From the NCBI RefSeq assembly GCF_000150275.1, contig NW_002060943.1, positions 6,750,299 through 6,814,298 of the forward strand: DNA of 64,000 nucleotides, written 5' to 3'. Both the position numbers and the translations under genes were made by a program. This document shows, one piece after another, positions 14,809-64,000 of the stretch. Each line of letters begins with the position of its first letter. Position 1 is the first letter of the stretch. The notes beneath the pieces were generated by a model that saw nothing but the letters and a program-made list of their open reading frames with translations, was not told the DNA's origin and searched no databases. The DNA is from Trichoplax adhaerens. Taxonomy: Eukaryota; Animalia; Placozoa.

Positions 14809-14891
14809 TCGTATCGCGTTTTCCTATCGAAAATACCAACCGGTCTGGGCTGTGAAATTAGACAGTAGTATTGAACAGTCCATTTTCCAAG

Positions 14892-24900: not shown

Positions 24901-25387
24901 GAAAATCATCGAAGGTATCAAACCAATAGAATTCAGTTACTCATTTATTGGTATTGTATGCGTTTTAATGATAGTAACGATATGTTTATATATATTATAT
25001 ACTACGGTAGATTTCTATTGAGGGAGATTGACAAACTTCCAGTTGCCCATAAACTAACGCAAATAACTAAATCGAATTCATTAATGGAATGGCTTGAAAC
25101 AATTAATCTGGAAAGTTACCTATCACGTTTTCAACAGCATGGATTTCTCACTATTAAGGATGTAGTCGATGTTAACGATTTTAACCTTACCCAAGTAAGT
25201 ATCAGTATGTATGGTCTAATGTTTTAATTCAAATTGCTCAAATAAAAGCGAGTATGAAATTTTTATGTAATTGCTTGAATAATAGATTTTGGATATTGCC
25301 TCCATTGGCCATCGTCGGAGAATGTTGTTATCGTTAGAGCAATTTAAAAGAAAGCCTAGTTTACCTGATGCAAATTTAATGCATTAA
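18931..25387 (+). CDS. Ankyrin repeat and tandem SAM domain protein, ANKS1/Odin-like, lacking the C-terminal PTB
   Basis: N-terminus SLLKAARENDVKRFIELL; ankyrin exons GNTPLHQAV, GYCPIHLAALFGH, GNSALHICI, GKTALDMAA, GSCLHAAVKAGH; long S/N-rich exon; SAM1 SVLTWLQSIGYPQYQQNFIKHGFDDIQYL..LLQIGIEDENHRR; SAM2 SLMEWLETINLESY..GHRRRMLLSL; stop TAA at 25385-25387. Confidence 0.85.
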
Positions 25388-31106: not shown

Positions 31107-31667
31107 NANNNNNNNNNNNNNNNNNNNNNNNNNNNNNNNNNNNNNNNNNNNNNNNNNNNNNNNNNNNNNNNNNNNNNNNNNNNNNNNNNNNNNNNNNNNN
31201 NNNNNNNNNNNNNNNNNNNNNNNNNNNNNNNNNNNNNNNNNNNNNNNNNNNNNNNNNNNNNNNNNNNNNNNNNNNNNNNNNNNNNNNNNNNNNNNNNNNN
31301 NNNNNNNNNNNNNNNNNNNNNNNNNNNNNNNNNNNNNNNNNNNNNNNNNNNNNNNNNNNNNNNNNNNNNNNNNNNNNNNNNNNNNNNNNNNNNNNNNNNN
31401 NNNNNNNNNNNNNNNNNNNNNNNNNNNNNNNNNNNNNNNNNNNNNNNNNNNNNNNNNNNNNNNNNNNNNNNNNNNNNNNNNNNNNNNNNNNNNNNNNNNN
31501 NNNNNNNNNNNNNNNNNNNNNNNNNNNNNNNNNNNNNNNNNNNNNNNNNNNNNNNNNNNNNNNNNNNNNNNNNNNNNNNNNNNNNNNNNNNNNNNNNNNN
31601 NNNNNNNNNNNNNNNNNNNNNNNNNNNNNNNNNNNNNNNNNNNNNNNNNNNNNNNNNNNNNNNNNNN
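31107..31667. other. Assembly gap (N run)
   Basis: About 560 N bases. Confidence 1.
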
Positions 31668-32283
31668 TCTTAAAATTTATTTTAATCATATCACGTTTTT
31701 CACGTCTAGTAAGACAAGCTTACGTCAACGGATATTCTCATTTTAGTAATCATGTATGACTTATGTAATATTCATATCAGTTCTTGGTATACAACGATAA
31801 AAATATTAATTTTGCATATTCTAACTTATTAGCTAAGTAACAAAAGAATGCATGTTTTGTTGTCGTTGACAAATGATGAATATCCCGTCGGGCAAAATAA
31901 GCATCATAAAATATAATTGCTATATACGTATAATCTTATTTCTTTTTATTCATTGAACAATTTATTTGTATAGCTTTAATAATCCCCTTTACTCAATGTA
32001 CAAAAATAATTAGTTTCATAGTATCCATTCGAAATAAAACTTACTTCAAGCAAGCAATGACCGAAGTTAATAAAGATTTTAAGAAAGTAAACATACCCGT
32101 ATTTTAGTGGAAAGTACTACTGAAGGAATGATCTATCATCTTTGATAATAAGTTAAATTACATGTTGTTCGTAACAATCCTCAGTGATAACCTTACATTT
32201 TGAATCGAAATCAAATCTTACACAATATTCCACCTAGTGCAAGATCGCTTGAAAGACCAACATTAAAGACGACATTAACTGCG

Positions 32284-35200
32284 ATGGAAAAGATTAATCA
32301 TCTGTGGGATTACGATGCTGATAGGAAGAGTTTGTTTTACTTTTTTGTCATTTTCCTTGTCATCCAATCCTGTTTTTACTCACAAGTAGAAACTTCGGTT
32401 AGTGTCGTATACTCTTTTTTTATAACACATATGCTAAATATTTTCAATGGCAGCTTCTATTCAACATATCGGATGAATTAAACAAGTTTAAATCACTTTT
32501 GCGCTAAGATTGATTTTAGCCAATAATTCATCACGCTATTTTAATATCTCAAACTAATTTGTTCATTTTTCAAAGATTTTCCACAGTAACCATAACTTTT
32601 AGTAGTCCTATTTTTATTTTCAAAGTTAATGAATTTATCTTGTCATTTCGTGCACCTAACACAATTGCATTGTACGTTTGTTAATATTATACACAGCACT
32701 TCATAATTTCAATCATATCAACCTTGAGTATTTTCGTTAGTATATCATGGCTAGACTTTATATGGTTATAAAGTTATCTGTATTTCAGTGAAATTAAAAA
32801 TTTCCATCTTCTTTATGATTTTACATAGATTAACTTAGCTTTAGCAATGATTGAAGCCTTCCTTTATCATGAATGATAACGCATATGCATATAATTAGAA
32901 CGATTTATCTTTGTCTCATGACTTTGATTCTAGAATTAAAATTAGATTTCACTTTGAATAACGTTACAAGTGAAGTTTATTCACTCATAGATCACACAAT
33001 ATTTTATTATAAGCCCATTTAATCAGTTGTTGACTTACTATATTTGAATATATTATCCCTTCTAAATATTTTTATTTGGAAAAAATGACGTATGTATTCG
33101 GCTAATTGGAAGCTATTAGAATATGAAGTATAACTAATCTCTGTAATAATACCCTCGAAATTTCTTAATCAATTCGCTAATCGATTAAGAATCTGATCTG
33201 AATGGAGATATGATAAATAAAATAGATAGGTTGGATAAACAGTACAATAGCAGAAGGTTATTTTTGATATCTTTTTAGAATTTAATGTAAAGTTAATATA
33301 TTTCATATATTGCAGTTTCTGTTTAATCCTAATCTTAAGCAGTAATTCTTTAAGAAACGTTTACGAGAACCAACCTTTAAGTTTTAATTATTATTGGTTT
33401 CCCTGCTTTTACAGTCAACCATCGATATCTAATTCTTTACTTAAATCTGAAGCAATCAAAATATTGTAGTCGATATCTTAATTATTTAAATAAGAATGTA
33501 ACAAATCATTAACGTCTATGCTAACAGTAAACAAACTTACAGGGATAACCTCTTAATTAAATTCAAATATTCTATACCATATGTGTTGGTATATAATGCT
33601 ACCAAAAATGTTTATGACAAACAGGATATATAAAGGAATAGAAAGGATTTATTTTATCTATGTATAGTGTATAACGCTGACACTAAAAAACTTAGCTAAC
33701 ACTAAATAAGTACCTGAAAGATACAGTAGCATCTCATAAGTAACAGAAATTTGTGCTATAAAATTAAAAATATTTTTCCATTCATGCTAGTAAAGACTGA
33801 ACGCTATATTATTGTTCATTCTTAATTCTATGCGCAACCAAATAGCGATATGGTTATAAATATACAACAAACAGAATATGAATTTGAAATCAATAATATG
33901 AAAATATCTGTTTTATGGAAAGAATTAGAATGGATTACTTTACCGCCTTAGCTATATTTTGATGTTTTAGTTGTATGATAAATCTGATAGCACTAAATCA
34001 ATATAAAGAAGTTGAAAAAGATAAGTTTTAGGAATCAGCTTGTAAAAATGATTCACAGCTCATCGTGCCATCGATAACGCCAACTACTATCAGGATGTAG
34101 TGGAATCATTTTCTTCGATTGCCAAATTCCTTAGTTAAATTATTAATGTTTTATCAAACGTATAGGAGATAAAAATATCTACTGTTGACTTTCTTCTGCA
34201 ATTATAATTTGCTCTCCAATTCGACACACATATAGATGCATATGGTAATTTAATTTCATTGACAGACTAATCTTCATTATACAGATATTGCTTTTATGGA
34301 ACAAATGACCTTTCTAACAATTAATTAGTAGGAAATTAAATTGCCTATAGAGCTTCATTTACGTACAATATATAGACATTCATACAGTAGATATCCTGAA
34401 ATTGAAAAATGATTTACTTTATCATAAAATTGATTACACCATAGATTCAAGATCAGGCTTCAGAGGAAAATACCCATGAAGGTAAGTTCATTGAATTAAA
34501 GTAAGAGCCGTTGGCATTATAACTAATACCAATTTTCCTGTATCGGTTATTGTCTAAATTACGTCTAATTAAAAATAGAAAAACATAATCATGTGATAGT
34601 TTACAATATCATCAATACATATGTGAAACAAAGATCAACACATTACCTTCTTTACAAGTCAATAAACTAATCAATCGTTTAATGCCGATAAATATCTCAA
34701 TAAACGATGCAAAAATATTATCAATCATACTGTTCACGAATTAATTAGCTAATTAATAAATCGTACAATCTTTTAATATAATTCTATCAAACTTTGCAAC
34801 TTTAGACGATCACTCTTCAATTCGCTATCAATGTCAAGAAGGATGGATTTTAATTTTCGATAAATGTTATATGATTATTCGAAGACGGGTAACAGTTTTT
34901 ACAGCAATGTATTGGTGTGCTAGATACAATGCACATCTACCTACAATTAGTTCCGATGCTGTCCTAGACGGCTTAATTGCTACTTTCAATTCAAGTGTAA
35001 CACAATATTGGATTAACTTGTTTAAGACATCTAATGACACTAGTATTCATTGGAAATGGCGAAGGAATCCTGAGTCAGATTATTTTCGATGGGCGGTAGG
35101 TCAGCCTCAGCGAACTAAATATAGCAGGCATTGTTGCATTTTCAATGGTTTGCTTAATCCATCCGGTTTTGATGACGTAAACTGCTATACTAGTGCCAGC

Positions 35201-38200
35201 TATCTATGCCAAAAAGGTCGATAATGATTAATAAATAAGTCCTCATTTTAGTGCCGAAGATTCAAATATCCTAATAAAAGGAAATTTTTGGATTAAATTA
35301 CTAAACGATTATATATTATACAAACAAATTCAGAACCATTTTATATTTTATTTTCAGATCCGTTAAAAGTCGGTTACATTTCTGATGATTCTGTCTCTAC
35401 TCTTGTGCCAGAACATCACAATTCCAAAGGTTAGGACAGATCAGAGCTTAATTTGAAAAATATTTTCATTTCTTGTAATGATAAATTGCAGTATTTCTAA
35501 AGAATATCATGAATATCATGATATCTCATCTTGCTATATCCTACAGCTTTTTAGAATTACTTACTTAGTAAGCATTCATATTACTATAGATGCATCGATT
35601 ATATTAATTATTTAATAGAAAAACTTTACTATACAGTAAGTATCAGTCACGATAATCATAATGTAAATTGAAAAATACTTCTTGCTATTTAACTTTATCT
35701 GTAATTAGTTACCGTACACAATTACGCATTTGAAATTATTGCATATTCAGCACATGCTGATCAATAATGCCTCCGAAAGTATCAGTTATTTCATAATTTA
35801 TTTCTTCACCTGCTTAATGAAAAATACGCATAATATGATAATAACTTACTATTATAGATTTGTATGGGCCTGTAAATTAACAAATTATTGACAAAAAATT
35901 TACAGGTAGCCTAATTTCAATGAATAGCTCTTTTACATCATTCATTAATACCGATGATTCGTACTTTATAGAATAGAAAATAAAATTTACCATCGTTAAA
36001 TAGATATGTAAAAGTTGCATTTTATGTATTTACTATTATTAATTATGGGTATCTTAATAGTATTCTAACTTACTAAGTAAGTATCGAATATTACCGTGTT
36101 ACAATTCTCCTTTGTAATTAGAAAACTGGTCTTAAACACAATCTTCACTCGTACTCATATTCCCAACTAACTTAGGGACCTATCGTAGTTGAACTAACTC
36201 TCAACTACACAAATAAGCTACTATTGAGTAATAGGTTTAAATACTTCACTTTATTTACGTTAATTTTAGTCGTAAAATGCACTAAAGAAAAACGTAAGAA
36301 TACTCTTAGCAATAATAGTCAAGTGATCCTGCAAGTGACTAAATGGAACTGAGCAGCTAAGCCAGTGCTTGGCTTTTTATAGTATCGGCCTACGCCGATG
36401 GAGCACTTGTGAATATTCTTGGCATAACGAATTACACTGTATAGTATAATACCGCCATGAATAAATAGTAAAAGGATCTCAAAATTATGTTGCTATTATG
36501 GTAACTATCTGATCTGCATATGTTGATACTATGAGCAATAGTAAGTTCATTGATGTACCATATCTATCTAGCAATGCTTAGTAAAGCAACGTTATTTATA
36601 TGTTGAACAAGCTCAAGCAAAATTTTGTTGTAATAGCAATAATATTCAATTTTTGTAATTTTTTACTTTCCGATGCGTGCAATCACTTTTCTGCAGAAAT
36701 TTGATGCGCGCATAATACGGAAGGCTATTTTTCGAGGACACTATACGTACGTACAAACAAATTATCAGTAAAGTATTTTATAAGATTTAAGTAAGACCGC
36801 ATTATACCTTATCCATCTAGTCATTTCTAGCCAACAGCTAGCTACATTCTTCGCTGAATTAATAGATTAAAGGATTATTCAATCACCATCCATGCTGGTA
36901 ACAAGGTTTATAAAATTGAACAATTTACGCTTTCTTGATTTTAAGCTGAAAATGTTTTAAATTTTCAATTACTACTGTCATAAGTAAAGTATTGGAAACC
37001 TTAATATATACGATCATTGCTATACTATTGAAAGAGCTTTACAAAGACAATAGCATACCTTAATCTCTTTATTGGCCAAATTTTTATCTATATCTTCATC
37101 TATTTATCAATCAACTATAATTTTATACCATAATATCATTCTGTCGCCATCTAATCATCTAGTTTAAGGCACATCTTAACCTACTCTAATAATGTTACTC
37201 AACTTTATAGGTAGCAACGGCAATTCTTATCCTAGTGTATCCATTGTATCCTCACTTTCAGCTGATTTGGTTGGTCGTTTGTTACGATTGATTTTCTTTA
37301 CTTAAATCGAGCATTAGATCACAAATTGAATTGATTAAGATTACCTATCGTCTTAATCTAGTCCTAATGTATATTAATAGTTTTTCCTTTTGTATCTTAA
37401 TTCGATGTTCAACTAGCTAAAAGATTAAATAAGTTCAATTAACTTATATTTCAAAAATTATTAAAAATTAGATGTTACAGGATCCAATCATCATCCAAAT
37501 GAATATTTTTTCCGGGCAACTGGTGCCGATTGATGGAGATTTTAGAAGTAGTACAATTTTGAACAACTTGAATTTTATTGCTAATTCTGAAGGCTCAAGA
37601 TTAGTATATACTACTTCCTCCGATTACTCACTATATGCGATGCAATCAACAAGCTTAAGTTTTACATCATTTACCGATTACATTGAAGATAGCATCAGCC
37701 AGCATATTAGCAGTTTTAAAGTGGGCAAGACAACTTCAGTGGTGCTCAGCCAAAGTTCTTATGCAATTAATGATCCGCTAGATAGTTCTTTAACTACAGA
37801 CGTATACGAACAGAAAAAAGTTTTCGCTAAGGAAACGATTAAGGTTAGCGCCTCAAAAACCGTCAAATTTTCAGACAGCACCTATCCATCAAATCTGTAT
37901 TTATATGATGAGACTTTAGCAGTATCTCAAAAAAATAGTCCTCCTGTAACAAGTTCTATGTCTTGGATCTATTCAACAATGGCTAGTGCGTCCTTGCGGT
38001 GTTCTGATTTATTTTATAAATATCTTGTTACTTCTATTGGCGACCAAAAACGATCAGAGGTATTAGTATATGCTCAAACTAGCAACTTTATATCTGAAAT
38101 AGCAAAAAAATCCTATTTTAATAATTCATCTACGACAAAAATAAACGAAAAAGCATCAGATGCAGTTTATGATGAAAGTACATTGCTATTCGATTTAAAT

Positions 38201-46685: not shown

Positions 46686-49600
46686 AGTTTAACTGCCTAA
46701 CCTAAAATAAGGTAATAAAAGTTGAGATCCGATTTACAACAAAAATTTAACAACACCCTGCTATGATATGCCTCTAGTACGAAGATAAATTAACTAGCAT
46801 GCAAATAGAAATCAATACACAGACATTTTTATTTCAATCATTCATTCTGGTTTTAACTGAATTTATTAAAATTAGAGCAAAAGATCAGAGTGTTATCTGG
46901 AAATGCCTAATAATATCTTATAAAATTAAGAAGCCTTTGGCAGTGAACGAAAGTTTTCCGTTGTAGGTTTAGTTGTGACGATAATTGACAGATGATTAGC
47001 AGATCTTTCACTATTCATCCGGAAAGTACCCAGCTACCAAGTCAATGTAAACATTGATTTATTACCCTTGATTAAAACAATTTTCTATCATAATAACAAA
47101 GACTAGCTAACATCCGATAACCAATCAACCAATTATATCAATCTATTGAGCAATATTAATATAAGTTTAACTCATACACCCAGAAGCCTCCTTGTGATAC
47201 GATGAATAAATAATTGCGCTAAACCGTAGACAATATATGTGTACTAAAGAAGTAACCTAAATTAAACTACTGTATTATCGTCCTCTGAGGCTATCATAAC
47301 CTGATTTTCTTTTATCAATACTCCAATGATTACCAACTACCAATTCTATAATACTATGCTAGCTAGCTGCTAGTACCTATGGCAGAAGTTGCAGTTACTG
47401 TGTAATGGTGTATAATGCTGGATATTAGTCTTTTATTGCTAGAAATAAGGAAAGCGATTGCATCAAAATGCCATCTGGCAGTTAATACGTGATATGATGT
47501 GTTAGGTAGTTGTGTAAAAGAAAAGATTATTTTAGTTGATGACAAATTAGAATCGAGTTTAGATTGAGGATAAGGACAGATATAAAAGTGATTTTAACTC
47601 ATTGCAGCCGTACAACATAGATTATAAAGTGTTGAAAGCCAGTAATGCAAAATAGATTACTTGAAAGTGAATACTTATGGATGCGGTAGAGGTGAAAGAT
47701 ATGGAATATTTCTTCTGTTTATAATATAGCAAGGTTAGGCGTCAAGTTTCAGTACTACAGTGCATGATCACTTTTAATTTAGTAGGCATAAGTTGTTGCT
47801 GCCATCGTCAACATCGGTCATTATAATGTCACTTAAGAGTTAAAACAAATTCAAATATTAGAAATTATCGATAGAAGCTTAATGTAAAATGTCTATAATA
47901 ATTTATTCCAGCAAAGCCTTCACATCATGGAACAGACAATAGCTGATGATGAAAGACGCCTGTCAGCTCGATTATTGTTGATATTAATTGAATAATGCGA
48001 GTTATTATTAGTCATGATATAATTTCATTGGATGATGTAGACTCAGAATGGATCAAATCGTGCCCAATGCATACATTAATATTATTATGATGATGATTAG
48101 GCCTTGATTGCCATCAATTTATTCAATGACGGCCTTCTTAGTCTGGTTGCTTAGATGTATTCATCGGCGGTACTTGCACAATAATGATTATGATAATAGT
48201 TAACTATCGCTATTATTTGCCTTGAGTTATTTCAAATAGGATGAATATCTTCCTATACAAATAGAATAAAAAAGAAATTATCTATCAGCATTTATTATTA
48301 TCACATGATTATTCTGTGGAGAAAGAAGTGGACATTAATGAATACTGCTACATTATTGGTATGCGCCTGTTGCCAACTATCCATAATATATTATTTCCAT
48401 CTAAATCTATCATAATTTGTGTACCATTAGCAAAAAATACAATTCATATGACGTCCATCTCCATCCTCTGATCCTTATTAAAATCTAGAACATGAAAGAG
48501 ACTAGATTTAATTGTTATAAGAAATTGAATAAATTTTTATCTTTTATTAATATCGTGGATTGTTAAAGTGTAGAAGACATTTCCCCTTCTTTCTCTATTA
48601 TTAAATATTTCTTGGACATTAAAGCTACAAATTATCCAAATAACTGTAAAAAATTATTGTAGATACTGTAACTAATGCTATAATTGCATCCAATCAATTT
48701 TATTTATAACTTGATCACGTAAACGTCAAGATCAACGAGTTAGAACATTGTATTGAACTATTGATTAAACTGGATTAAGGGCTCAATCATAAAGAGTATT
48801 CTATCCATGGATGCCGAAGTGAGCAGAGTGGTCTAACTATTGATGATTAGTTTTATCCATTTTTTCGTGCCTATTTAATATCGGATGAATAAGTTAAGGG
48901 CGAAAAGAATTCATTTTACCTGGTTTAGGTAAGAGTAAAGCTGAAAAATTGATTTCATTAGCAGATACAAATGTTGTTGCTGTTAACAATGACAATTGAC
49001 AAGGACTTTACTAAGTTATAGCTAGTAGGCAAATGACAATGATTACAGTAATGTCTTACTACGATTTGGCGCTTCTTTCAATATTATCCTACAGATCGCA
49101 TAGATAATCTTTCAACAGTGCAATCTTCGTTGAAGTAGTTCTCTTGCCTTCTATCGAATAATTCATTCGAGGTTGTGCCACTACGTCGATACCTCCTTAC
49201 TTACATAGCAATATAACTAACTAGGAGATTTTATTGTATCATCTTAAACTTTTTCAACAGAATCTTTACCGCCTATTTACTCTTCTATCGTTGCCTAGAT
49301 AAACTTTGTATGTAATTAGTCAAATTGATGTAATTTATACATGTGCCAATTTTCTACTTTTTTATCACAGTAACAAAGTAGTTTTTCATTTGACCATCAA
49401 TTAACTTCTTCAAGGGAAAGTAATTGAGTTTCTCCCGGCTGCTAACATTCTAATTTTTCTACTTAGCGTTCTATTATAATTATAATTATTAGCCTATGAT
49501 AATCCTAGTACTTAGCAATAAATTATGTTGCTTAAGACCGCGATCATAATTGAATTTTTTCAAATTTCCCAACCCGAAAGCAAATGGCACTCAATTAGAA

Positions 49601-51602
49601 ACTTCTGTAATCTATTTCCTTTCCTATGTATCATGAAATCAAGGTTGATTGAATGATAACTATGCTTTAAAATCTTCTGTTAGTTTCATTCCTCTCGTTT
49701 ATCGATACGAGCAACATCGAAACTCTATCTTTATGAGCAATATTAAAAACGAGCAGATTGGAGTTATGGGTCAAAATACGTCTTAACAATAAATATTGCA
49801 TCATATCACTTGAAATGAAGTATTATACTGTATTCTATCATCTCAAATTACAAAAAATATACTTTTTCCTTCTTAGACTTATGTCGCAACAGTTTAAATT
49901 AAAATAGATTCCTATCGTATGTTCGATTAATACCTGGAAAGAAAACACGAAATAAAATAACAAAGACAACAGTAAAATCATACATTAATAAAATGTATAC
50001 AATGTGACTCAGCATAACCTTGCTATTATAACGATTCAATTTTATGGATAACATAAACTGAAGTAACAATAACTGAAGTAAATAAGATCAGTAATGGAAT
50101 AATACTTCGACTTTATGCAATGACTTAATAACAGATATAATAAAGGTCGATTAGAACGTAAAAAAATGGGCTAAACGATCATAAATAGTCTAAGGCCACT
50201 TTCAGCAAGATATTTTTTTACGATCAATGTCTTACTATAGCTTGAATTGGACTTATCAACTCTGTCAAGTACATAATTTGTGTTTAAGATGAATTCTAGA
50301 TCGATGAAAACAAATACTGCAGTACACGAAAGTGGTTTATTGGCCGATATTATTTTTCTTTGTACATGCTTATGAACTCATTCTCTATATAATCTTAAAC
50401 TTTAAAAGTTGACCGCAACAACGACATCATAATTTATGCCTACTGGATTAGCGATGGCTATCTTAATCAACAGGAAGAACTGTAGGCATTCTTACTTTTA
50501 AGATTTAGCAATCTCAAAACAACACCGGTCCTTTTGATAAAGACCGGCCGTCTATTTGATCAAGTATTTCGTACTATAGGTAGCCATAGACTACGAGAAG
50601 GAGTCTATGCTATGCATTGCCTTAAAATTTGTACTAATTACAATTATTAGAAGGGAAAATCAACTCTGTTGTAAGATGTTATGCAATCGGACTTTGTCAA
50701 TGTTATTGACAAAGACCATAGTTAAAAATATCGCTTTAGATTTACGACAATATGCAACTTAATTATACGGGAATACTAGCACAATGGCGTACCATGATGG
50801 TTAATGTTCGATTAAAAATGTTTAGTAAAAATGTTTTAATCTTCTCAATTTGACAATATCGATAAAATCAATATAAAACAGTCTATTGCTTCATATCGTG
50901 ATTTAAATGATATTGCTTAATAATCAAATAGTAGTATCTCCATAACATGAGATGTTATCCTATCCACGATATTATTATTTTTATTTCTGAGACTGCAGTA
51001 ATCTGCAAACCATCTCTTTTGATTTCATATAATATTGTAATTCTCATGACAAAATGAACAACTTACAATCGTTGCGATAATGTGTAACCAAATAGGCGAT
51101 GTATCCAATTTGTTTTATCTCTTTGATTAATGTTGATATTTCCATGAAAGAAAGATTCATGTTCAAGAATTTATTAATGGATAAAATTGTCTAGTGTGCT
51201 AGCAAAATTTGAATTATGATGTTAATATGGTTGTATCTATTCCATCCATAGGCTTGATAACCGTGAAATTCGGCGCTAAAATGCAGCAAAATGCAGCAAC
51301 ATAAGGACGATAGCAATATAAAGTTGATTAATTAAACAGGTCTAGTGTGATAGTGATATATCGAGAACTATCGGCTAGATTAATTTCTTTACGAATTGTA
51401 ATCGCAGATTTTACCACCATCTCGATATTGCTACAAAGGATAATTTGGCTATTTCTTGTACAAATTTTTATTGAATTTATTCTCTCGATGGTCTGGGCTT
51501 AATTTAGTGTTGAATTTAATGTATCGTTCCATTTGATACTATACCAGATTATTTGGTGGATAAAAAGATTGTAAATATCTCAATTTCCTAGTCTATACCG
51601 AT

Positions 51603-53760
51603 ATGCTGAAATCATTAAAGAAAAGTGTCCGATTGTCACTCAGTGATTCTAACAGTTATGAAAAGAAGGAAAAGAAAGAGCCTACAAAGTCGGCATCATT
51701 TTCCTTGCGCAACCTAGAGCTAACGGTTAAGTATATGGGCTATTTGCCAGTATCCGATGCTCGCTCGCTGCAAACGTTAAAACAAGCCATTCGATTTGTT
51801 GTTCAACAAAGGATACGTAGAACTCACTCACGATTTGAAATGAGAAATTTCCAAGTTATTATTTATGATTTAGAAAGTGAAGACACAATTCTTGATATCC
51901 CAATACAGAAAGTAGCGTTATGTGGTAAAGAATTTGTCAAGGGTTTCGAAAAATGTTTTGCAGTCAATGTTACTACCGATGATTCTCATGTTTGCCATGT
52001 CATGCAAGCAGCAACGACCTATGAAGTAAATGCTGATATTGAATATTTTTGGGGAATTACTCATCAATACGATAGCACTTTATGCTTCCGTTTATTTTAG
52101 TGATGTTTTAGTAAATTTCCCTTTATTTTAATTGATATGCATAAAATTGATCTCCCTTGATTGACCGCTAATTAGAAACGAATTTATTGATTATAAGTTT
52201 AACTTTTATCCCATGACTTATTTATCTTGAAAGGCGGAAAAGTTTTTGGTTAAAATTGCTGAAGCATTTGAAGCCCTAGGAAAAATGGCTAAAAAGTCCA
52301 AGCAACGAAAATCAACGATTCCTACTCAAGCTGCGCCAACATCGAAATCAACACCGGTAGGTTTTGTTAACGGTAGCCATTTTTTTACTATCTTAATGAA
52401 ATGCAAGAATCATTTTTTGAACCTTAGTGCAGGATTATTGATGTATAAAGACATTTGAACTCTTTTTCTTTACCTATTTTAACGAATTTCCAAATTATGG
52501 CTTTACTATTTAAAGGCATCTGATGAAATGGCTCGTTCTGATAATGGCAGCCAGCAACGATCTCGATATAGCAGCAATTTTCTTAATGTCGATAACCCTA
52601 ACACCTTGTCAACAGGGATCTCGAGGGATAGTCATGATGGTTTATCGAACTCGATGGAAACACGACAATTACCACCCATTCCAAAGAATTTCAACTACGA
52701 TAATGCAGAAGTTAGTCAATCTCATCACGCTAATGAGAGCCATGGACTACAAATTCGACCGCTACCACCAGTACCAGATGTAGCGAGAAATTCGTCAGGC
52801 CATGATGATGAAGATGTAGCGAATAGAGAAACTCTATATGCTAGTTTAAAGAATACCGTGAAAAAGGATGAAGTAGAAGATCCTTATAGTACAATTAAAA
52901 ATAAACTCGGTGAAGAAAATCCATATAGTACAGTTAAAAATAAACGTGTTGACGAAAATCCTTATAGTTCGGTTAAAAACAAATCAAACGAAGAAAATCC
53001 CTATAGTACGGTTAAAGATAAATTAAATGAGGAAGACCCTTATAGTTCTATAAAAGACATTCGTAAGGCTAAACTTAAATTAGCCCTAAGTCAACCAGGA
53101 CAAGAAAATATAACTACCCAAGGGACACCTCAGTATCAAACAGAAGATGAAGAAGATCCTTATAGTACTGTTCGTACTAAAACCAATAGTGATAATAGTA
53201 AATCCGATGTGGTCATTCAGGTTCGTAGCCCAGCCGGAAATCTTGAGGTATCTGCACATGCAAATGATTCGACTAGAGGTAATCCGGCTAAGCAAGTGGA
53301 TGAGCAAACAGGCGAAAATAAGAGCGGCGCAGTTATGGCCGAGTTTAAAGCTAGCATTACTCCAGATCTATACGAAGCCAGAAAGTCATATCAAAGTAGA
53401 CGTAGTATTGCAAATCAATGGACTAGTTATAATGTCTCCGAAGTATTTGAAGAAGTGGGCGGCGACGAGCAAAATGATGTAAAATCCAATAAAAAATTTT
53501 ATGATCCTACCGATATTTATGTTAATCTCCATAAATATAGAATGCAAAATCAAAATAAATCCAGTTCTTCCCGTCAATATAATGATGTTACTAACAAAAT
53601 CGATGATAAAGGGGATAGCGAAAAAGTCCATCAACAAAGTGCGACTAAGACTAATGACAGCCAAGTCGATGGAAATTTATCGGTTAACCAACATAAATTT
53701 TATCAAAGTATTAAAGATGTTCAGAGTACTTATCAGAAACTTAAAAGTAAAATAAAGTAA
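51603..53760 (+). CDS. PTB-domain phosphotyrosine scaffold with SH3-ligand motifs and tandem YS(T/S)(V/I) repeats; exons 51603-52025, 52234-52356, 52516-53756/53760
   Basis: PTB/PID pattern LTVKYMGYLPVSD..IPIQKVALCG..KCFAVNV..HVCHVMQA..AEKFLVKIAEAFE with phase-0 junctions in frame, then a disordered tail with RQLPPIP, RPLPPVP, TLYASL, six E(D/N)PYS(T/S)(V/I) and IYVNL. An acceptor at 51591 implies a further upstream exon, so the true start is uncertain. Confidence 0.8.
52873..53067 (+). repeat. Coding tandem repeat, 39-bp / 13-aa unit x5, with a sixth copy at ~53149
   Basis: VEDPYSTIKNKLG / EENPYSTVKNKRV / DENPYSSVKNKSN / EENPYSTVKDKLN / EEDPYSSIKDIRK, plus EEDPYSTVRT. Confidence 0.95.
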
Positions 53761-53987
53761 GTTTAGAACTCAGCCATTCATTTTTTGTAGATCTATACCG
53801 CTACGTCTGCAGTTATTTCTAATCGATGTTATTTCATTGCAGTTCCTTAGCAGAGCTAAAAATTTGCTTTGAGATTCTTTTTGCTTAATTTATCATTTTA
53901 TTGTTTTTGGGGGATATTATTTCAATTTTAATCATGTCGACGAACTTACACTGATGGAATAACGTACTCAATGGATGCCGAAAATCG

Positions 53988-56900
53988 ATGTGTAGATCGA
54001 ACTTAGTCAAGCAACATAATCAACAGCCAACCCAATTAGATACAAGAGAGGCAGTTCGCCGTGTTGTTAGTGAAATATATAAATATGATTACAGGTTTGT
54101 TCTATATTTTAAAATTTAGCAAAGTGAGCTAGTTTGTATGGTATTGTTTTAATTTACCGTACTCAAGATGTTATGGTTATGTGATTATTAAACGATATAC
54201 AATTTGCTGCCGATCGATTCAGGCTAGATAATTCTGAAAAATTAAAAGAAATTATTGATGAAACATCGATCAGCGTTGATTCTATCGATCCTGAAACTGG
54301 CTACAGCTTGCTGCATCATTCAGTATCAAGTGAAAGTTTATCTTCGATCAATTTTTTCCTGGAAAGGTTAAGATCTATCTAGAATTATTAACGATAAACC
54401 TGTAGTAAAGCTAAATCTTGAGGGAATGAGCGCATAATTATGTTAAACTACGCATACATTACGTCCTGCTGTAGCGCATATTAATGATTAATCCGGATAG
54501 TTAATAAGAATTTTAACTTAAATGGCAAACATACGGCACCATAAATACCCCTTGCTGGACCTTACTCCTTCACTAAACGAAAGTAATCTATCTAAACGCT
54601 ACTTCCAACAGTTGGTAAAGCTACTCTATATAAGGTCGACCTTTGATAGACCAATTATCGCTAGATCATCATGATGCTTATAGACTCCAATTGATATTAG
54701 CATAAGCAAAATATATCTATATAACTTCGGAGTTAATTCTAGTGTAAATAACGCAAATTTTTATTACAGCCGTAGTAAATTTCTACGTAAGAGCTGGAAA
54801 ATAGCAATCGAGTATCGTCATTACATATTTCACTGTATATATCGCTGATTAATTAAGTTATCGTACTTGTAAATCGACCGTAATTGAATCTCAGGAAAAA
54901 TATTATGGAATCCTTTTCTTTCTCATATGCTGTATTAACGTTAATTCTATTCCAATACAGGGGCGCTAACGTCAATGTTCAAAATAGAGACAAGAGGACA
55001 CCACTTCATGTCGGTGTAACTACCGGCAATTTTTCAATTGTCAAACGTTTACTTTGCCACGGAGCCGATGTTACTATTAAAGATACGCACGGGTAAGAAC
55101 TATCCACAATATTATAATTGAAACATCGAATAAATTAACAGACTACACTGTTTTGTGGATTGTATTTTCATAATTTAACAGTAAAAATTATCCCTTAGAT
55201 CAACTAATGTAGAGTAGAGGTAACGTAACAATATCTACCACTTCTAGTTCTAATTATGAATACCAAACAGTTTAGTTGCTCAGCCCAATGATTTTTCGCG
55301 CGATAGGAGTTGTTGCTGGAATTAACGCTTTCATACCATTATTATTACTGAGAAATTTTAACCTCATTGCCAATAGGCGTACAGCATTACATCTGGTTAT
55401 GGGTCTGCAATTAGATCGTAAAATGATGTTACTACTTGTCGAATATGGAGCAAGAATCAGCGAGGCCGATTCCAGTAGTACAAGACCTGTCGATATTGAG
55501 CCGGTTAGTTGTTCTTGCCAATCCGATTTTTCAATCGTAGTTTATAGTTGTAAGCAATACCTTTGAACAACTAATTGCTTTGATATCATATTTAAAATCT
55601 AATTCTAGGAGCTACGAGTTATCCAACGAGAAATGATCCTAAAATGCAACGATGAATTATGCACAATTGATGTTGGAGCAATATTTAGAATTCGCTCTAG
55701 AGTTAATTCTAAAAGTTCGGTAGGATCAGGAACAGGTTCCATAAAAAGTATAGAAAGTCGATCGAATTTTTCTATAACAAATGAAGAAGTAAGACTTAAA
55801 TTAGGTGGCATTGAAGAAAATTCAAATGATAATCCTGATAATTTACTAGCGGTTCCTAATAAGCAACAAAGTGATATACCGGGGAGTGATGAGGAAAATG
55901 TTAACTATGACATCGAATTTGGTGATGGGTCGGATAAATTGACTAATTTTCCGAATGTTCTTGATGCTGCTTTACATGATAGCTTTGATGATCAAAGTGA
56001 AATTCTTAGTGACGAAAGTAATACTTTAAAGGACTCTTTAAAAAGTGAATTTATAAAAGCTACTAATGAAATAACTGAATCTAGTACGACTGTAAATAAA
56101 GAGACTACCAACGTTAAATTGGCGCCTGCTAATACCGAACTTCAAGCATCACATCAGAGCGGAGGCAATAGTAGGAGACAAATCACTAAAGAAAATTCTT
56201 CTTTTTCTGATAATAATAAGGACGACTTGGTACCAGTTTACCAAGGAGAAAATTTGATGAGTGATGACAATATCAACGACAATGAGTTTAGCAGTGATTT
56301 GGACGCTTGGGGTGGCGTATTTTCCGAAATGGATGCTTGGGATGATGTCTTTGTGGAAGAAAATTCCAATTTATCATGTAATAGGCAAGGGAATAACGAT
56401 CTGCCTGACACTTCTTCACTAAAGCTTTCAATAGGTCACTCATTCGATCAAAAGCCACTATCACGAGAAGATATTATCAAGAATAAGATTAGTAATGTAG
56501 AGCTTATTCAAACGTTAAAGATTGAAAACAGCTATCTCGAAGGGCCAAATAATAAAGCTGTGCTTCCCGATGATCCAGCAGAATTAGAAGATTTTGACAG
56601 TAAAGAAATATTTGGGCAAGAAGAAAAAGCCGCTAAAAATCTTCGAAGTTTAGCAATTCTTTCCAAGAATCCAGAATGTCATACTATAATATTATCCTTA
56701 CTCTTCGCTCCAAACAGTATCTTGCAGAAGAATAACCCGAAAAGTTCACCAAGAACTTTATCTGTTCAGTTGACAGCTTTAGCACACACGGAATCTTCTG
56801 TAAAATCTCTTCCCCGTTATTTGGCTTCGTTTATATTTACACTGTGTAAAGTAAGTAAATATGAAAATTATAATATATTTTAAATTTTTAATCGACAGAC

Positions 56901-59900
56901 ATTGGTTCTCACAGTATTTTAATTACTTCTAAGCTTAAGTCGACATGTAAAAGCAGATTATGTTAATAAAATTCTTAAATGTCTATATAATCTATCCAGT
57001 TAGATTAATATTTTTCCCTCTTTATTTCTTGATCAGTCCGATGGTATTAATAGTCAAAAGAAATCTATCAATAGCGGAATTGTTAATTTGCTGTCTGATT
57101 TATTGGATTCTAAAGCTGATCTGATCAAAGTAAGTACGCTTAAACAGATAAGAACTTATATGAAAATACCTTGCATACTGCTAGCGATTTGTCAATTTAA
57201 TTGACGAGATATCTCACTCCTAACAATTTATGGGGTAAAGTAGTCAAATAAACGTAAAGAATTAAGCCTTATCTATAGATAGTATTTAAACGATTTGTAC
57301 GGTAGATAAAATTATGAAATATCAACCTATGCTTTTCTAACTTTATTTAAATCTATTTTAGAAAATAAGCTAATAATACTATTTGCATCATTGATATATA
57401 GCGTTATGGAATATTAATCTATGTCTTTGTGAACTTCCTTTAATCCATTTTAGAAAATAAGTTTATCGTTGATATGGGAATTACTCCATATCGACAGCGA
57501 TCGGGAATTTTGTACAGTCCTATCGCATTTCCACGTTGATCCTATGCTTGATTTAGTCGCTCAATGTGAAGCTGAGCAAGATATGCGAGCTGATGAATTT
57601 GATCCTAATGCAATAGATGATATGTATAGACAATATGTATTGAATAGCCATAACCTGAAAGATAAGTAAGTAATAAAATTGAGCAACTCCTTATATTAAA
57701 CTGAATATTCCTATCCTTATTATTTTTTTTTATTATTGATTAGCTAAAAACCGGCAATTTAAATCCGGTTTATTTATAAAAGTGGTAATAGACATATACT
57801 TATGGCTCATACTTATTTTCTCTTTACTATAGTGAAATAATAAGTATGGCCAGCAAAGTTCTTGCTCGGACTAGTATTTATTCCAAAATTAGAAGGAGCT
57901 TAAGCCAAGCTAAAGCTATTGCACTGTTATGTACAACTCATGCACTCCTTCCTCCTACTGAATCTTATCTTTTGGGTTGTACTGTTGCTAATATTGCTAT
58001 GGATGCAGATAACCATGCCGTACTGGAAGAATATAATATTTCATACGCACTCAGGGTAAAATAATTAGTATTATCAGCCATTGCTTATTTTCGATCCTAC
58101 TTAGCATAGTACGGTTAATGGGCTAAGTTGCTATTTAGATCTTAATTTCACTTGCTTTTGAACTAAAATTGATGCCTTTGACTATTTTTGAATAGCCGTT
58201 GCTTTCATCAAAGGATCCTTTCATGCAATATCATGCCGCTCGCTGTTTAGTCTACATGGGCTATTATGATTTACATATCTATCTCTTTAGCCAAGATTAT
58301 GATGAAATGTTGGGCGACGTAATATACGCCAACGATAATCAATCTGAGCACGACTATATCAGGTAAAAACTGTATGACCTAATTCACTTTCTTGCGATCC
58401 CCTGAGCGAAGCTTAATGAAAGACCTTTATCATAAAAAGAAATAGAATTGTACCTGAATTTACCAGTGTACTTATACTGATTATTTAATTACAGGGGCAC
58501 GACTTTAGAACGAATTGTTGAAATATTAACTGGAAATTCATCGGTTTTATGGGGTGGCTCATCGCTGACACGAAATTCGTCCGGTGATTTACGAGAGAAT
58601 AGTGATGAAAAACATTCGACTGTTCTCGCAAGTGAACAAATATTAGAGTTTATCTTGACCATGTTTTCAACGTTTGTTAGCGCTGAAATATTGATGAATT
58701 TATTACTGCATCGGTAAGAGAAAGATACTGATGTCTTGCGTTAAAACTGATTTCATTGTTTATCCCTTAAAGAACATTAGATCTTTATGTATTTGATTAC
58801 ACGAGCGCTCTTGATTATAACTTATTCGTTATTTTTGCAGATTTCGTCATCCATCTGCATCTCGAATATTTGGATGGAAGATTAAATCTAGTTCATCACC
58901 CATCGATAGTGAAAATCCCATGGAAATGTATTCGCCATTACCTTTAGTTCACGTTTATTTAATGAGAGTATGGGAAATGTGGTTGGAAAACTTTTCTGAT
59001 GATTTCGTTACCAATTACGGCTTAGCGGTATGGAATTTATATTGATACGTTAACCTAATGAGCCAAGTAATTTTTGATCTTTCCTAATAATTAGATTTCC
59101 TTGAGTAAACTTATTCCATCTATGAGACTTGCCGGTGGTCCTTATCGACCGGCTGCAGCGAGATTGGAAGAACTCTTAGGCAAAATAAAGGTAAAACATA
59201 AAATTAAAATTTTGAATTTTGTTTTTATTAATCTAAGATTAATGATATTAAAATACTGATTGGCATGAAACTAACGTTTCAAACTTAAAGCGACTGTCAC
59301 TTATTGCAACTTTTTATTTCAGACCCGAAAATTATCTGACTCTAACCTTGAGGGAACAGGTTCCTTTGAAGCGATCCATAATAAACTATATGAACAGGTT
59401 AAAATTTATATCCAGTGCGCTGTTATTCTTATAATAGATTGCAAGTTTGCTTGCAATGTTCATTTAAATGAGTAGATAAATTAGTGAATACTTTAAATAT
59501 TTCTTTTGTCATTTACCTTCACTATTTTAGATATTAATATTATGCATGATTTCTATATAATAGTGTAAGTTTGATATTATCGGTGGAACGCAACCTTGCT
59601 CTATCGAAGAAGCTGCAAAACTCGCTAGCATTCAGCTTTATATTGAGGTATGATCTTCGATAGATGTTTATCGAATCTGTCATCATGGCTTTCATCCAGT
59701 TTATTTAATTAATGATAAAATCACTTAAATTGTTGTTATATGGACTTAATTAGGATATCACCGGTGTTATAGAAGAAAATCATGACAATAACTATTCATT
59801 ACACTTCCTAAAGCCAAAGAAACAAATTTTAATCAATAATCCTGACCAGGATTTGGTTGTTAGCAGGTTGAAATTGAAATAAATACTTTCAGATAACATC

Positions 59901-62900
59901 GTAGGATAAATACCGTAGTTATTATGATGATAAATATGTCACAATATCCCAATACTTCTGAAATTAATTTGTGTTCATTTCTATAGTGTGCGATATAATA
60001 TTTGTAATTCAATATTTAATATGCATTACTATTTAATTCGCTGGTAACATGAATTTGATATTATCTCTTAATTATAGAGCATCTAGTAGCCGAATAAAGT
60101 ATTGCTTGCCTAACGTCTTTGCAAAATCAAAATTGGCAACTAAAATGTAGGTCAAGAATTCATAAGCTGAGGATACGTAAATGTATTATAAGTTAGAATT
60201 ATCGTTCAAAACCAATACGTACTATAAATAATGACGCAGTTAGTGTACTTAATATCATTCTTCGCATCATAAAAAATTCCCTCTAGTGATATTGAAACAC
60301 TTTTTTTTGGTTAGGGTCAAAGAACTGCACGAAGATTTATGTCTAGATAATCCATCAGAGCGAAACGCGAAGCATTCTTACATCGATTATTGCCAATCGT
60401 TAACAACGTATGGTTGCTGCGTCTTTAATTTAGAGGTACTGCCACCCTAACATACGCAAAATACATCACTGCATTCTATAAAAATCTGACATCTTGTATA
60501 TCTTAACTTCTGATAATATCCAGGAAGTGATTGTTGTCGCCAATAGTAAGCACAAACGTCCCAAAGCAGAATACGAGAAACGATTGCTATGTATACATCC
60601 AAAACATGTCATTATGATTGATGCTAAAACAAAGGTAAGATCATTTACATTCTCTTATTAGCAATGGCTTTAATTGCTCTACAGGTAGATAATAACAATC
60701 ATTCTATCGCAATCTGATGTCTGGCCGTGACTTGCTGCGACATGGATAGTAGTTACGAAAAAAATATTATCAACTAGATTTAAATGGTGACTAATTTATC
60801 TGAAACTGTAATTTTCTATATCCAAAATTAGGAAAAGATCTCGTATAATAGCTTTCAAACACTAAAACGTTGGGAACCAGGACATTTTGGCCATGTGGTT
60901 ACGATGCAGTTGACTTTTACGAATAAAGCACATACCTTCCTTCTGGAGGATGAACAGTATGTAATTTCAAATCCTAATAATAATTACAGTGAAAAATGAA
61001 TTGATTCCATGCAGCATTTAGATTACTTTGTTTATATTCATGATTTCTGTTTGTATTTGAATAGGCAATGGCAGGAATTAGATCTGCTATTTTGGGCATG
61101 TATTGAAGAATTAGACTGGCAGGTAAGATTGCTGCATTGGTGATATACGTTAGTAAAGGAGAATAATCGTATATTATGATTATTATAATTATTGGTTATA
61201 CTTTAACTAGTTTAAATTGTTGTTCTCATAGCGAATCTCAAAGATGAGTAAAACTCCCTGGAGTAAACTAGCTGAGGAAACTCAGACTTGGGGTCGAGCG
61301 GCAGCGGCAGCACATGCTAGAACGATTACTGTTCAGGCTGCAGCAAGATTGAGTAGTTCTACGGCTACCGAAGAAGATCTTGAAAATTATCATAGTGTAG
61401 CAGAGTTAAAAGCAAAAACCGTCAGCCACGGTGGTAGTTTGTCTTCTTTAGGATCAGGAAGTGTAACTCTTCGTCGAAGTAGTACTGCCAAACAGTCTTC
61501 TAATGGAAGTTCTTATTCAAGCGGCAAGGACGTTGATGAACGGCTAAGATCAGTTCCAATGCGAAGAAGATCACATCAAAATAATGGTAATGTTCAATAG
61601 ATTAAAGGGATAAATAATTACGTCATAAACGAACTTAGAGGCTACTATATCGATCATTTTTATGGTATATCATCAGCTACTTTTCTTGCTTTTCATATTT
61701 ATTTCAGCCTGCCATATTGTAACTTAAACTTTTTTCATATCTACATTAATAATACCTTTATATACTAATTATGTACGCGTATGTAATTTTTGTATTTGAA
61801 TTTGGTCATGATGTCTAATACGTTAAGACATACGGCAATAATGCAACTGTTTCTGTCGATGATTGTTTGTACCTGTATAAATAAATTAATTTGATTCGTA
61901 TTCATGTTTGCATGGTAATATCGTAACTCAAAATATAGAAGGACGTGGATCGCCCATGAAACCTCCATCAGATACTCCAAAGTGGCGCATGAGGCAAGTG
62001 TGGGCACTTAGTCAGCCGCCAGCAATTAAGAAGCAAGTTTCTCGCGACTCTGTGAACTCTGATGCCTCATTAGATGAAAGCTGGGTTTATGTGGAAAGGC
62101 GATCATCATCATCTGGGGAGTCTACACAGACCCCAGCTACCGGTACTTCTTTATTAGATGACCAATCCAATACATGGTATCGTCGCAATCATCCGTCATC
62201 ACCAGATTCAAGAAGTAAAAGAAATCAGACCGTGCGAACTTCGCCTAGGCTAGCTCAAAGAGATCGTCATCAATCCAATACCATTCCTCGTGAAGATAGT
62301 AATACTTCGCTCAATCTCTCTCTAGCTGAGAATAAAAATACCAACGACGATTACCGTAAATCGTCCTTCGTTACAAGTTCACCAACCGATTCTTTTATCG
62401 ATGTTAGCACCATAGTAGATGAAGCTTACGCTAATGATACTTCTAAAGGAAGGAGTATTAGTCGTGCATCAACATCAAGCAGCATCGCGGAAAGTTTAAC
62501 TACAAATGAGACAAAGAAATTACCAAGAAATTCTACTTTTGGTAGTCTAGAAAGCGAATTAGGTTATAGTAATAGTAATAAATCAACTGAGAGCAGCCTC
62601 TCAAGAAGGGATATGGTTAAACCGGCTGGCGTTAAATCAATTGAAAGTTATGGAATTGTAGTGGATTTCCCAAAATGTCCTTGCCCACCAGATCCGGACT
62701 TGCCAGAATTGGACCTAGAAAGTATAACGTAAGTAAAGAAGATTTTGTACTGTACCTCTTAATACTTCATCGCCATCCTGCTAATCGCCTAAACTACTTA
62801 CTGTACGGAAATAGACGTATACTTATTCAATTTCTTTTAATAATTTAATCGTATTGTAGAAATATCGATCTTTTACGTTATCCTAGAGAACTGGCAAAGC

Positions 62901-64000
62901 AAATAACCTTGATCGATCACCGTAAGCTATTTAGATTAATAACGGACAACAAATGAATTTTTATATATTCTTATAATTAATAAATTCTAATATACAGTAA
63001 AATTGAATTTAAGATAAAAGCTATTTCAGTATAAAGTTTGATAGGACACTACTGCGTTAATAAGCACGTTGCATTCGTCTTTACTTCACTAGAATTTTTT
63101 ATTTCAAGTTAAGATAGGCTTAATTACATATGACTCTTGGTAATTGTTGTAATGCTATTACAGATTTATTCCGTCAAGTCACTGTTAGTGAGTGTCATAA
63201 AAAATTTTCAAGTGTGTCGAAAAAGAAAAGACATTTTGATGAGAATAATCCTATCCAGGGATTTGCTGAAAGATTTAATAAGGTATGCGACTATAAAGGC
63301 ACTTTAAAACATTTTCAAGGCCTAATCATGGCAACTTTACCTTGATACTAAGCATGAAAGAATTATTTCTCTGTCTTCAATGACAAATTGGACTACTTTT
63401 ATTTTCAGTTAATTAAATTATGCTGGCTACAGACTTTATTTTATTCAAGTTTAATCGACATAAGAATATTCTGCTTCTTTGATATTTTAGTTAAGTCAGT
63501 GGGTAACTGCTTCTGTATTAATGGAAAAGGATATCGAAGTTAGAGCGCATATACTTTGCCAATTTATATTAACGGCCAAGGTAACTAAACTATTAACGTA
63601 GCCTCATTACAAATACAGTAAATATATAGTATACCCTACCATGCACAATACAGAGTTTACTGATAGATATCCACTCTATGGCTTGGATGCTACAATAATC
63701 TCAAAGTTACATCATCTTATATTCATAAAATTTATTTGTAGCATTGCTTGCAATTCGCAAATTACAATGCGGTTATGGCAATTGTTGTTGCCGGACTTGG
63801 AAGCAGTCCAATTCGCCGATTAGAAAAAACGAAAGCGGTATTTAAAAATGTTTTATCTCATCTCTTATTAGATAAATCTTAAATATTAGTTTTAATGCTG
63901 TAGTACCGTAAATTAATTTCTGACTTTAAAATAACAGCAAAACCATACAGATTACGCTACTATTTCTAGATGTAGAAAAGAAGATTCATTTCGATTTTCT
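53988..64000 (+). CDS. Large RasGEF: ankyrin repeats, acidic linker, ARM-like repeats, REM, FERM F2-F3 (talin-like), Ser-rich linker, CDC25 domain; 3' end beyond the window
   Basis: ANK: TGYSLLHHS, GANVNVQNRDKRTPLH, GRTALHL. ARM-like: LLSSKDPFMQYHAARCLVYMG. REM: IRGTTLERIVEIL..FILTMFSTFVSAEILMNLLLHRF..MRVWEMWLENFSDDF. FERM F2: LYEQCKFDIIGGTQPCSIEEAAKLASIQLYIE..AKHLYIDYCQSLTTYG. F3: RLLCIHPKHVIMIDAKTKE..LKRW. CDC25: PRELAKQITLIDHDLFRQV..FAERFNKLSQWVTASVL..RAHILCQFILTAKHCLQFANYNAVMAIVVAGLGSSPIRRLEKT. Confidence 0.88.

Follow-up and report, generated by a model that had tools for sequence, protein, structure and literature searches.

What protein does a tyrosine-rich exon of the placozoan Trichoplax adhaerens belong to, and what might its tandem array of E-(D/N)-P-Y-S-(T/S)-(V/I)-K units be for? 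The exon lies in a 64,000-nt stretch of contig NW_002060943.1 (assembly GCF_000150275.1, positions 6,750,299 to 6,814,298 of the forward strand), hereafter the window, to which all coordinates refer. A preliminary description had proposed a phosphotyrosine-binding (PTB) scaffold that docks Src-family kinases, is phosphorylated on the array and recruits Csk, SHP2 and Grb2 through their SH2 domains, with a bearing on how Csk control of Src arose in early animals. We find that the array exon is transcribed and is internal to a gene of ~2,450 amino acids (aa), whose product we predict to act as a Ras/Rap exchange factor. The array itself may be a cassette on which Src-family kinases dock, which they phosphorylate and which recruits SH2 proteins with Csk as a main reader, a reading to which we give a probability of about 0.45, counting mixed occupancy.

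The linker exon is a 100% match to T. adhaerens TRIADDRAFT_52031. RNA contigs splice both of its ends in 4/4 runs, so the exon is transcribed as had been supposed; the downstream joint, from 53756 to 53996 (GT..AG), renders the stop codon of its open reading frame (ORF) at 53758 intronic and rules out a protein terminating at 53760. A DNA-like run covers 50799-56663 joint-free in a single piece. Seven of 21 sequencing runs were examined, and run X17 hardly covered the locus; 17 of the 28 coding junctions are displayed directly in contigs, the remaining 11 following from GT-AG signals and reading frame. The resulting gene model is free of stops over 2,332 aa up to the window end and extends beyond it (loose end past 63837 in three of four runs). 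Beyond 56850 and as far as 61586 its exons add up to 2,308 nt, which is exactly the remainder of a 6,218-nt RNA contig, and all nine depth bins fit the model within 2 nt. An independent annotation, RDD42180 of Trichoplax sp. H2 (2,450 aa), presents the same model, with 11 of 2,332 aa differing, and shares the start codon at 51603 with TRIADDRAFT_52031. The T. adhaerens annotation cuts the locus into three models (TRIADDRAFT_52031, 52032 and 52033), which we correct into a single gene: the annotated ends at 57454-57668 and 61232-61600 are intron read-throughs with an in-frame stop just past the GT donor, the same trap as the stop at 53758. The long 5' untranslated region (51252-51602) holds four short upstream ORFs of 4-14 aa each.

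As judged from profile and structure searches, the protein comprises a Dab/Numb-class PTB, the tyrosine linker, ankyrins, ARM-like helices, REM, talin-like FERM F2-F3 lobes and CDC25 (Table 1). The stand-alone PTB scaffold thus gives way to a multidomain RasGEF, as the transcript runs on into the Ank, REM, FERM and CDC25 exons. The N-terminal PTB itself was recognised correctly: its sequence leads to Numb in phmmer (E 5e-5), a seven-row family profile matches ARH (2e-12), Numb, ANKS1B and GULP, the AlphaFold model (pLDDT 91) is superposed by Foldseek on the PTBs of APPL1, Numb, ARH and Dab, and in the ESM Atlas the N-terminus falls with PTB clusters (score 0.90). Searched alone, this sequence gives no Pfam match for the PTB; a weak Forkhead match (E 0.07) was rejected. 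The domain is of the Dab/Numb class and not of the Dok/Shc/IRS class: the 30 PDB sequence matches and 32 listed fold matches are all Dab-like (ARH, Numb, ANKS1B, GULP, APPL1, Dab, Fe65, X11, CCM2, EPS8), and none is a Shc, IRS or Dok PTB. PTBs of the Dab class bind NPxY independently of phosphate. For the linker, AF2 gives a mean pLDDT of 46 from a 3-row alignment, the array being predicted disordered, and three short helices are predicted in its conserved C-terminal part (shallow alignment).

Residues 791-1095 have no match in any family member compared, while the following ARM-like region is supported by Arm matches (Pfam E 1e-6 and 2e-5) in two orthologues. The REM domain scores 31.1 bits on P0004 and 26.4 on the full-length protein P0002 (cut-off 28.3). 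The FERM F2-F3 lobes find their best solved structures in talin-2 and talin-1 (E 8e-8); F0/F1 lobes were not found by Pfam or PDB search, the REM-like region ending at ~1576 and FERM_M beginning at 1595. The CDC25 domain reaches 190.7 bits on P0002 against a Pfam cut-off of 23.1, is matched by the window exons too, and keeps the helical-hairpin motif VPYFGIYLKDLTF..DGNP. Its best structures are Cdc25, RasGRF1 and RalGPS1, then RasGRP1, Epac2 and SOS; no Ras, Rap or Ral subfamily stands out.

Within 52483-53760, all motifs named in the preliminary description are found where it had placed them. RxLPPxP is the class I Src-family SH3-ligand consensus; it occurs twice in the exon, a count never attained in 20,000 composition shuffles. 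The loose pattern acid-x-x-Y-[AS]-x-[VIL] occurs seven times, against a maximum of two in as many shuffles, but since tandem copies are not independent this demonstrates no more than a repeat (period 39 nt and 4.4 copies by TRF); a stronger test is offered by conservation. The copy at Y332 reads YSSV. The comparison of the array with EPIYA motifs holds for its tandem, copy-variable build but not for the strict pattern EP[IL]Y[AG], which has no match in the 2,332 aa; YxxP is absent from the linker, and the Crk/Grb2-type PxxPx[KR] gave no match. The Y290 site, read earlier as ITIM- or ITSM-like, fits neither [SIVL]xYxx[IVL] nor TxYxx[VI]. As the H2 protein and five of six covering runs read ETPYASL instead of ETLYASL, the site is best seen as a degenerate zeroth copy of the array. 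NPxY-ligand arrays, Cas-type YxxP arrays, strict EPIYA motifs and ITIM/ITSM were accordingly rejected as candidates, the patterns being absent or not matching the sites. In the ESM Atlas, the array found no usable match.

Two exon-sized ORFs, P0099 and P0100, which we infer to come from other placozoans, are 53% and 41% identical to the linker exon. Both keep RQLPPIP and RPLPPVP unchanged, so that the pair, rightly taken for class I Src-family SH3 ligands in pattern, is invariant in three of three versions. Both also keep the upstream YxxL, the tandem block and the distal copy, and have Asp at -2 of the Y290 equivalent. The array counts five copies in P0099 and ten in P0100, against six in the window, and copy number therefore varies among the three versions, as anticipated. 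E, P, Y, S and V/I are kept in 21 of 21 copies across the three versions (also by pattern definition). Motif positions are identical in 49/56 and 50/60 cases, against 148/289 and 57/149 elsewhere, a comparison that is partly circular as the motifs were defined from these sequences. The expected conservation of tyrosines is found against P0099 (15 of 17 retained), in which DIYVNL (Y517) is identical and YDPTDIYVNLHKYR is retained; P0100 stops before that segment. Separately, two linker blocks, 53350-53577 (59 of 75 aligned positions equal to P0099) and 53668-53756 (26 of 30), lie far above the remaining linker in conservation; they hold many kept tyrosines with poor Src scores, are predicted helical, and contain FYQSIKDV, which resembles YSSIKDI of the array.

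If the array were a minisatellite that expanded neutrally within the disordered linker, its likeness to signalling motifs being incidental, this would account for the 39-nt tandem period, the copy number of 5-10 and the lack of the array in other family members. However, in the six window copies the core codon pairs differ synonymously in 18 and non-synonymously in 25 of 105 cases (only D/N, T/S and V/I), compared to 8 and 57 of 90 in the flanks, i.e. the flanks drift and the cores are fixed. Moreover, the non-repeated motifs (both PxxP, the distal copy and YVN) are invariant too at 41-53% overall identity, and three of three single-nucleotide polymorphisms within the tandem block are silent. 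The neutral explanation is thus already unlikely, with only a slim chance of being right. Array indels were seen in none of the six covering runs, i.e. there is no within-Trichoplax copy variation in these contigs, which may drop rare variants or collapse repeats.

We scored the tyrosines with human kinase and SH2 matrices (Supplementary Tables 2 and 5 of PMC11136658), expressing results as percentiles of 1,170 Tyr sites of the collected homologues. The fit to Src proposed earlier is strong on the human matrix: all eight flagged tyrosines lie at the 98.3-99.7th percentile, the other 11 of the exon's 19 tyrosines reach at most the 79.7th, and the 15 array copies of the orthologues lie at the 89.9-99.7th. 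Pro at -1 is neutral for SRC kinase (1.11) and favoured by the SRC SH2 (2.84). The Csk SH2 matrix prefers Ser at +1 (4.9) and Val at +3 (5.1); the 12 of 21 copies with Val at +3 score at the 97.4-99.7th percentile and the nine with Ile at the 88.5-95.2nd. The predicted recruitment of Csk is therefore compatible with the Val copies, but the scores do not set Csk apart from Shc, Nck, RasGAP, Abl and Fyn. The Grb2 site is ambiguous: Y517, at the 99th percentile for Src kinase and the 99.1th for the Grb2 SH2, is the only good Grb2 site and is conserved in P0099, but YxN counts are at chance level (at least two in 11,420 of 20,000 shuffles, 57%). The suggested recruitment of SHP2 is not supported, its N-SH2 (PTPN11_N) reaching only the 54-88th percentile.

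A serious if somewhat unlikely alternative is that the phosphorylated array is read by positive or other effectors (Shc, Nck, the Src, Fyn or Abl SH2, p120 RasGAP), that exchange output is amplified or timed in the fashion of C3G, and that Csk is incidental. Indeed, SHC1, SH2D1A, RASA1_C, NCK1, ABL1 and FYN equal or exceed Csk on the YST[V/I] copies, and C3G activation combines Src phosphorylation with adaptor binding (PMC9896810). Against this, the four YSKV copies of the orthologues lose the Src-family SH2 fit (Src/Fyn/Abl 55-74, SHC1 87) and retain that of Csk and Nck (both 97) as well as RasGAP. In vitro, many SH2 domains are bound by EPIYA-type peptides and by PAG, whereas PAG in cells reproducibly binds only Csk and Fyn.

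Several points weigh against Csk as a main reader of a Src-phosphorylated array. Csk does not rank first: SHC1 and SH2D1A score 99-100 on each of the six window copies, RASA1_C reaches at least 95.5 on every one of the 21, Csk drops to 88.5-91 on the D-P-Y-S-x-I copies, and no selectivity of Csk over other SH2 domains emerged among the 11 of 76 SH2 rows scored (together with 1 of 93 kinase rows, cut-off +3 values being imputed). The percentiles are inflated because the background is not a phosphoproteome. At -1 the array lacks the preferred Ile (4.3), the flanking Lys is unfavourable for c-Src, and the YVN of Y517 sits in a low-confidence predicted helix. The +3 residue strictly alternates between Val and Ile in P0099 and P0100, but the window order I,V,V,V,I,V shows no alternation, and the pattern in the orthologues may simply stem from a duplicated two-unit block. 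The presence of Csk in Trichoplax rests on a review that places Csk in all animal phyla. Finally, phosphorylation, SH2/SH3 binding and exchange activity are predicted only.

Taken together, docking of phosphotyrosine readers by the array is probable, and given such docking we see an even chance that Csk is a main reader; Csk is the single most probable negative one. In the mechanism we favour, whose localisation, phosphorylation, partners and exchange activity we infer, the Dab-class PTB and the talin-like F3 lobe, by family knowledge, would bring the protein to unphosphorylated NPxY-type tails of the integrin or lipoprotein-receptor type. A Src-family kinase's SH3 domain would dock on RxLPPxP and the kinase be opened, and the docked kinase could then processively phosphorylate the adjoining array. 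By the human matrices, copies with Ile at +3 would feed forward through Src-family SH2 domains, copies with Val would lead to shut-off by Csk or to Nck, RasGAP or Shc, and Y517 would recruit Grb2. As a result, Ras/Rap might be activated at adhesion or receptor sites in a pulse that limits itself, combining the functions of Cbp/PAG and C3G in one chain by analogy. A complex prediction of PTB, FERM and array scored 0.00 and was counted neither way.

The motifs might alternatively act unphosphorylated, as YxxPhi, NPY or DPY sorting or endocytic signals, or as ligands of the protein's own PTB and F3 lobe that keep the exchange factor autoinhibited. PTBs of the Dab/Numb/ARH class are typical of endocytic adaptors, and a site optimised for a kinase would not usually show an invariant Pro-Tyr; a complex of the Numb PTB with a Gly-Pro-pTyr peptide has reportedly been solved. 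This idea is distinctly unlikely: the 2,332-aa model contains no NPxY/F, orthologues have the PTB and FERM without the array, and acidic residues at -3/-2, Ser at +1, V/I at +3 and two adjacent class I SH3 ligands suit Src and SH2 domains. The array is a concrete, testable candidate for recruitment of Csk or other SH2 proteins in a placozoan; Trichoplax is reported to be without Gab/DOS docking proteins (PMC2747914).

The exchange factor belongs to a wider family. Among 1.84 billion representatives searched with HMMER there were 82 matches; 18 were looked up, and seven of these carried an organism (Nematostella, Desmophyllum, Sycon, Oscarella, Ephydatia, Salpingoeca urceolata and Capsaspora). 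Nematostella LOC5521422, the Oscarella, Sycon, Ephydatia and Salpingoeca urceolata sequences and Capsaspora CAOG_03360 match segment by segment in the same domain order as orthologues, although the PTB was not recognised in the Capsaspora member and CDC25 was not found in the Sycon sequence. Our analysis thus exposes a PTB-Ank-ARM-REM-FERM F2/F3-CDC25 architecture common from Capsaspora to Nematostella. Choanoflagellate-type members have an added DEP domain; in P0014, P0022, P0031 and P0033 it stands between PTB and ankyrins, at the position of the placozoan tyrosine linker. A FastTree tree roughly follows species groups, with long branches and as a rough check only. None of the seven organism-assigned members is bilaterian, which suggests, short of proof, that the family was lost in bilaterians. 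A word-based search with the ARM-REM-FERM query found no homologue among 7,986 candidates, reflecting an insensitive search and not absence. We found no description of the architecture in the literature, subscription papers not being covered. The CDC25-domain phylogeny of van Dam et al. 2009 may already include these proteins among its unnamed classes. The family is ancient and holozoan and appears to be undescribed.

None of the holozoan orthologues from Nematostella to Capsaspora has the PxxP/Tyr cassette. A scan of 10 family sequences (cnidarian, sponge, choanoflagellate-type and filasterean) revealed neither the array nor RxLPPxP, the linker has no match in 12 other family members (9 of these near full length), and among 109 proteins collected only the two Trichoplax versions, P0099 and P0100 carry the cassette. 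By these comparisons it is a conserved, copy-variable and lineage-restricted addition. The proposed bearing on how Csk control of Src arose fails, because sponge, cnidarian and unicellular orthologues lack the cassette and Csk itself is pre-metazoan; an ancestral animal Csk scaffold was likewise rejected, and the cassette gives no date for the beginning of Csk control. It offers instead a natural experiment in the origin and copy-number change of phosphotyrosine docking arrays in a disordered linker. A bolder synthesis, which we regard as unlikely in its entirety, is that exchange factors of an ancient holozoan family, which bilaterians have apparently lost, use their own PTB and F3 to reach integrin or lipoprotein-receptor tails, while the placozoan copy-number-tunable cassette docks Src and recruits Csk. 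If true, one chain would perform the jobs of vertebrate integrin-talin, Cas-Crk-C3G-Rap1 and Cbp-Csk.

Table 1. Exons, domains and linker motifs of the RasGEF gene in window coordinates
Feature	Position	Strand	Evidence
5' non-coding exon	48555..48928	+	RNA contig 48555-48929; joint 48925>51249 GT..AG cut +3; loose ends 4/4 runs
Exon 2: 5' untranslated region, start codon at 51603 and initial 141 aa with the greater part of the PTB	51252..52025	+	contig joints, gene model
PTB, Dab/Numb class, aa ~36-162	51708..52296	+	spans intron 52026-52233; phmmer, family profile, AF2/Foldseek
Exon 4, predicted disordered linker (aa 183-596)	52516..53756	+	both ends spliced, 4/4 runs
RQLPPIP, class I SH3-ligand pattern	52663..52683	+	pattern scan
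RPLPPVP, class I SH3-ligand pattern	52756..52776	+	pattern scan
ETLYASL (Y290)	52828..52848	+	pattern scan, contig runs
Five tandem 13-aa units E-(D/N)-P-Y-S-(T/S)-(V/I)-K, Y306/319/332/345/358	52873..53067	+	TRF, pattern scan
Sixth, distal copy EEDPYSTV (Y398)	53149..53172	+	core EDPYSTV at 53152, then R instead of K
Strongly conserved block aa 461-536, two low-confidence predicted helices and YVN site	53350..53577	+	59/75 aligned positions equal to P0099
DIYVNL (Y517), Grb2-type pYxN pattern	53512..53529	+	pattern scan
Ankyrin repeats, aa ~640-760, three exons	54223..55503	+	Pfam Ank_2 5.5e-21
Acidic low-complexity exon, continuing into ARM-like helices	55609..56850	+	contig joints, gene model
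ARM/HEAT-like helical region, aa ~1096-1385	56605..58362	+	weak Arm E 0.21 (P0002); family-wide matches
REM (RasGEF N-terminal)	58495..59190	+	Pfam RasGEF_N 8e-6 (P0002), 3e-7 (P0004)
FERM F2-F3 lobes, talin/kindlin-like	59323..61122	+	Pfam FERM_M 4e-13, IRS-type lobe weak
CDC25 (RasGEF) catalytic domain, N-terminal part	62860..63837	+	Pfam RasGEF 2.7e-56 (P0002); contig joints

Elsewhere in the window, a head-to-head gene pair with Death and SEFIR-type domains occupies 11199-16517. The minus-strand gene has a Death domain at 13248-13709 (E 2e-8) and a SEFIR domain at 11199-11765 (E 3e-7), the plus-strand gene a Death domain at 14862-15254 (E 5.5e-4) and a SEFIR-looking ORF at 15897-16517 without relevant Pfam match; a 71-bp tandem array (14285-14773) lies between them. 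Possibly the pair encodes innate-immunity adaptors. At 23112-25227, a low-complexity exon, in which PPPPKPPRR and further PxxP motifs occur, is followed by SAM-domain exons (E 1e-8), a possible ANKS1- or SASH-like adaptor. We also noted a C-type lectin exon (34760-35224, E 1e-11), an importin-like exon (3083-3529, Xpo1 E 6e-4) and an assembly gap of about 570 N (~31100-31680).

How does the protein compare with known systems? The background literature also included PMC3561454, PMC4030455, PMC4342544, PMC13192696, PMC10065799, PMC2213442 and PMC8662651. With C3G/RAPGEF1 and SOS it shares the REM and CDC25 module and a disordered region with SH3 ligands, and with C3G a likely control by Src phosphorylation (PMC9896810). 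However, its SH3 ligands are class I RxLPPxP and not of the Crk/Grb2 type, and it adds PTB, ankyrin and ARM-like regions, FERM F2-F3 lobes between REM and CDC25, and the tandem Tyr array. Cbp/PAG1 is similar in its disordered multi-tyrosine tail, proline-rich SH3 sites and YSSV Csk site, Csk and Src-family kinases being bound together (PMC3492796); PAG has a single Csk site and is a transmembrane adaptor carrying palmitate, whereas the Trichoplax protein is a multidomain exchange factor with a tandem array, and no homology is shown. The EPIYA proteins CagA, Pragmin and p140Cap share Glu at -3, a small +1 residue and tandem variable copies, but the Trichoplax units have Pro at -1 rather than -2, no Ile/Leu at -1, and Ser at +1. 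Disordered repeated Tyr sites that are Src-phosphorylated and bind SH2 domains are also known from p130Cas/BCAR1 and the RM2 region of Monosiga RTKB2 (PMC5043372, PMC3584944). The Cas repeats are YxxP sites for Crk and the RM2 units are ~80 aa long and sit on a receptor kinase, in contrast to the 12-13-aa YSx[VI] units on an exchange factor found here. KRIT1 combines ankyrin and FERM domains, with weak Ank_KRIT1 and KRIT1 FERM_C matches in orthologues, and the F2-F3 lobes are closest to talin; unlike KRIT1 and talin, the Trichoplax protein is without NPxY/F motifs, F0/F1 and a talin rod, and has a GEF domain. Judged on the features tested, it belongs to none of the Dok/Shc, EPIYA, PAG, Cas and KRIT1 families; by analogy, it would work like C3G or SOS fused to a docking tail of the Cbp/PAG or Cas kind.

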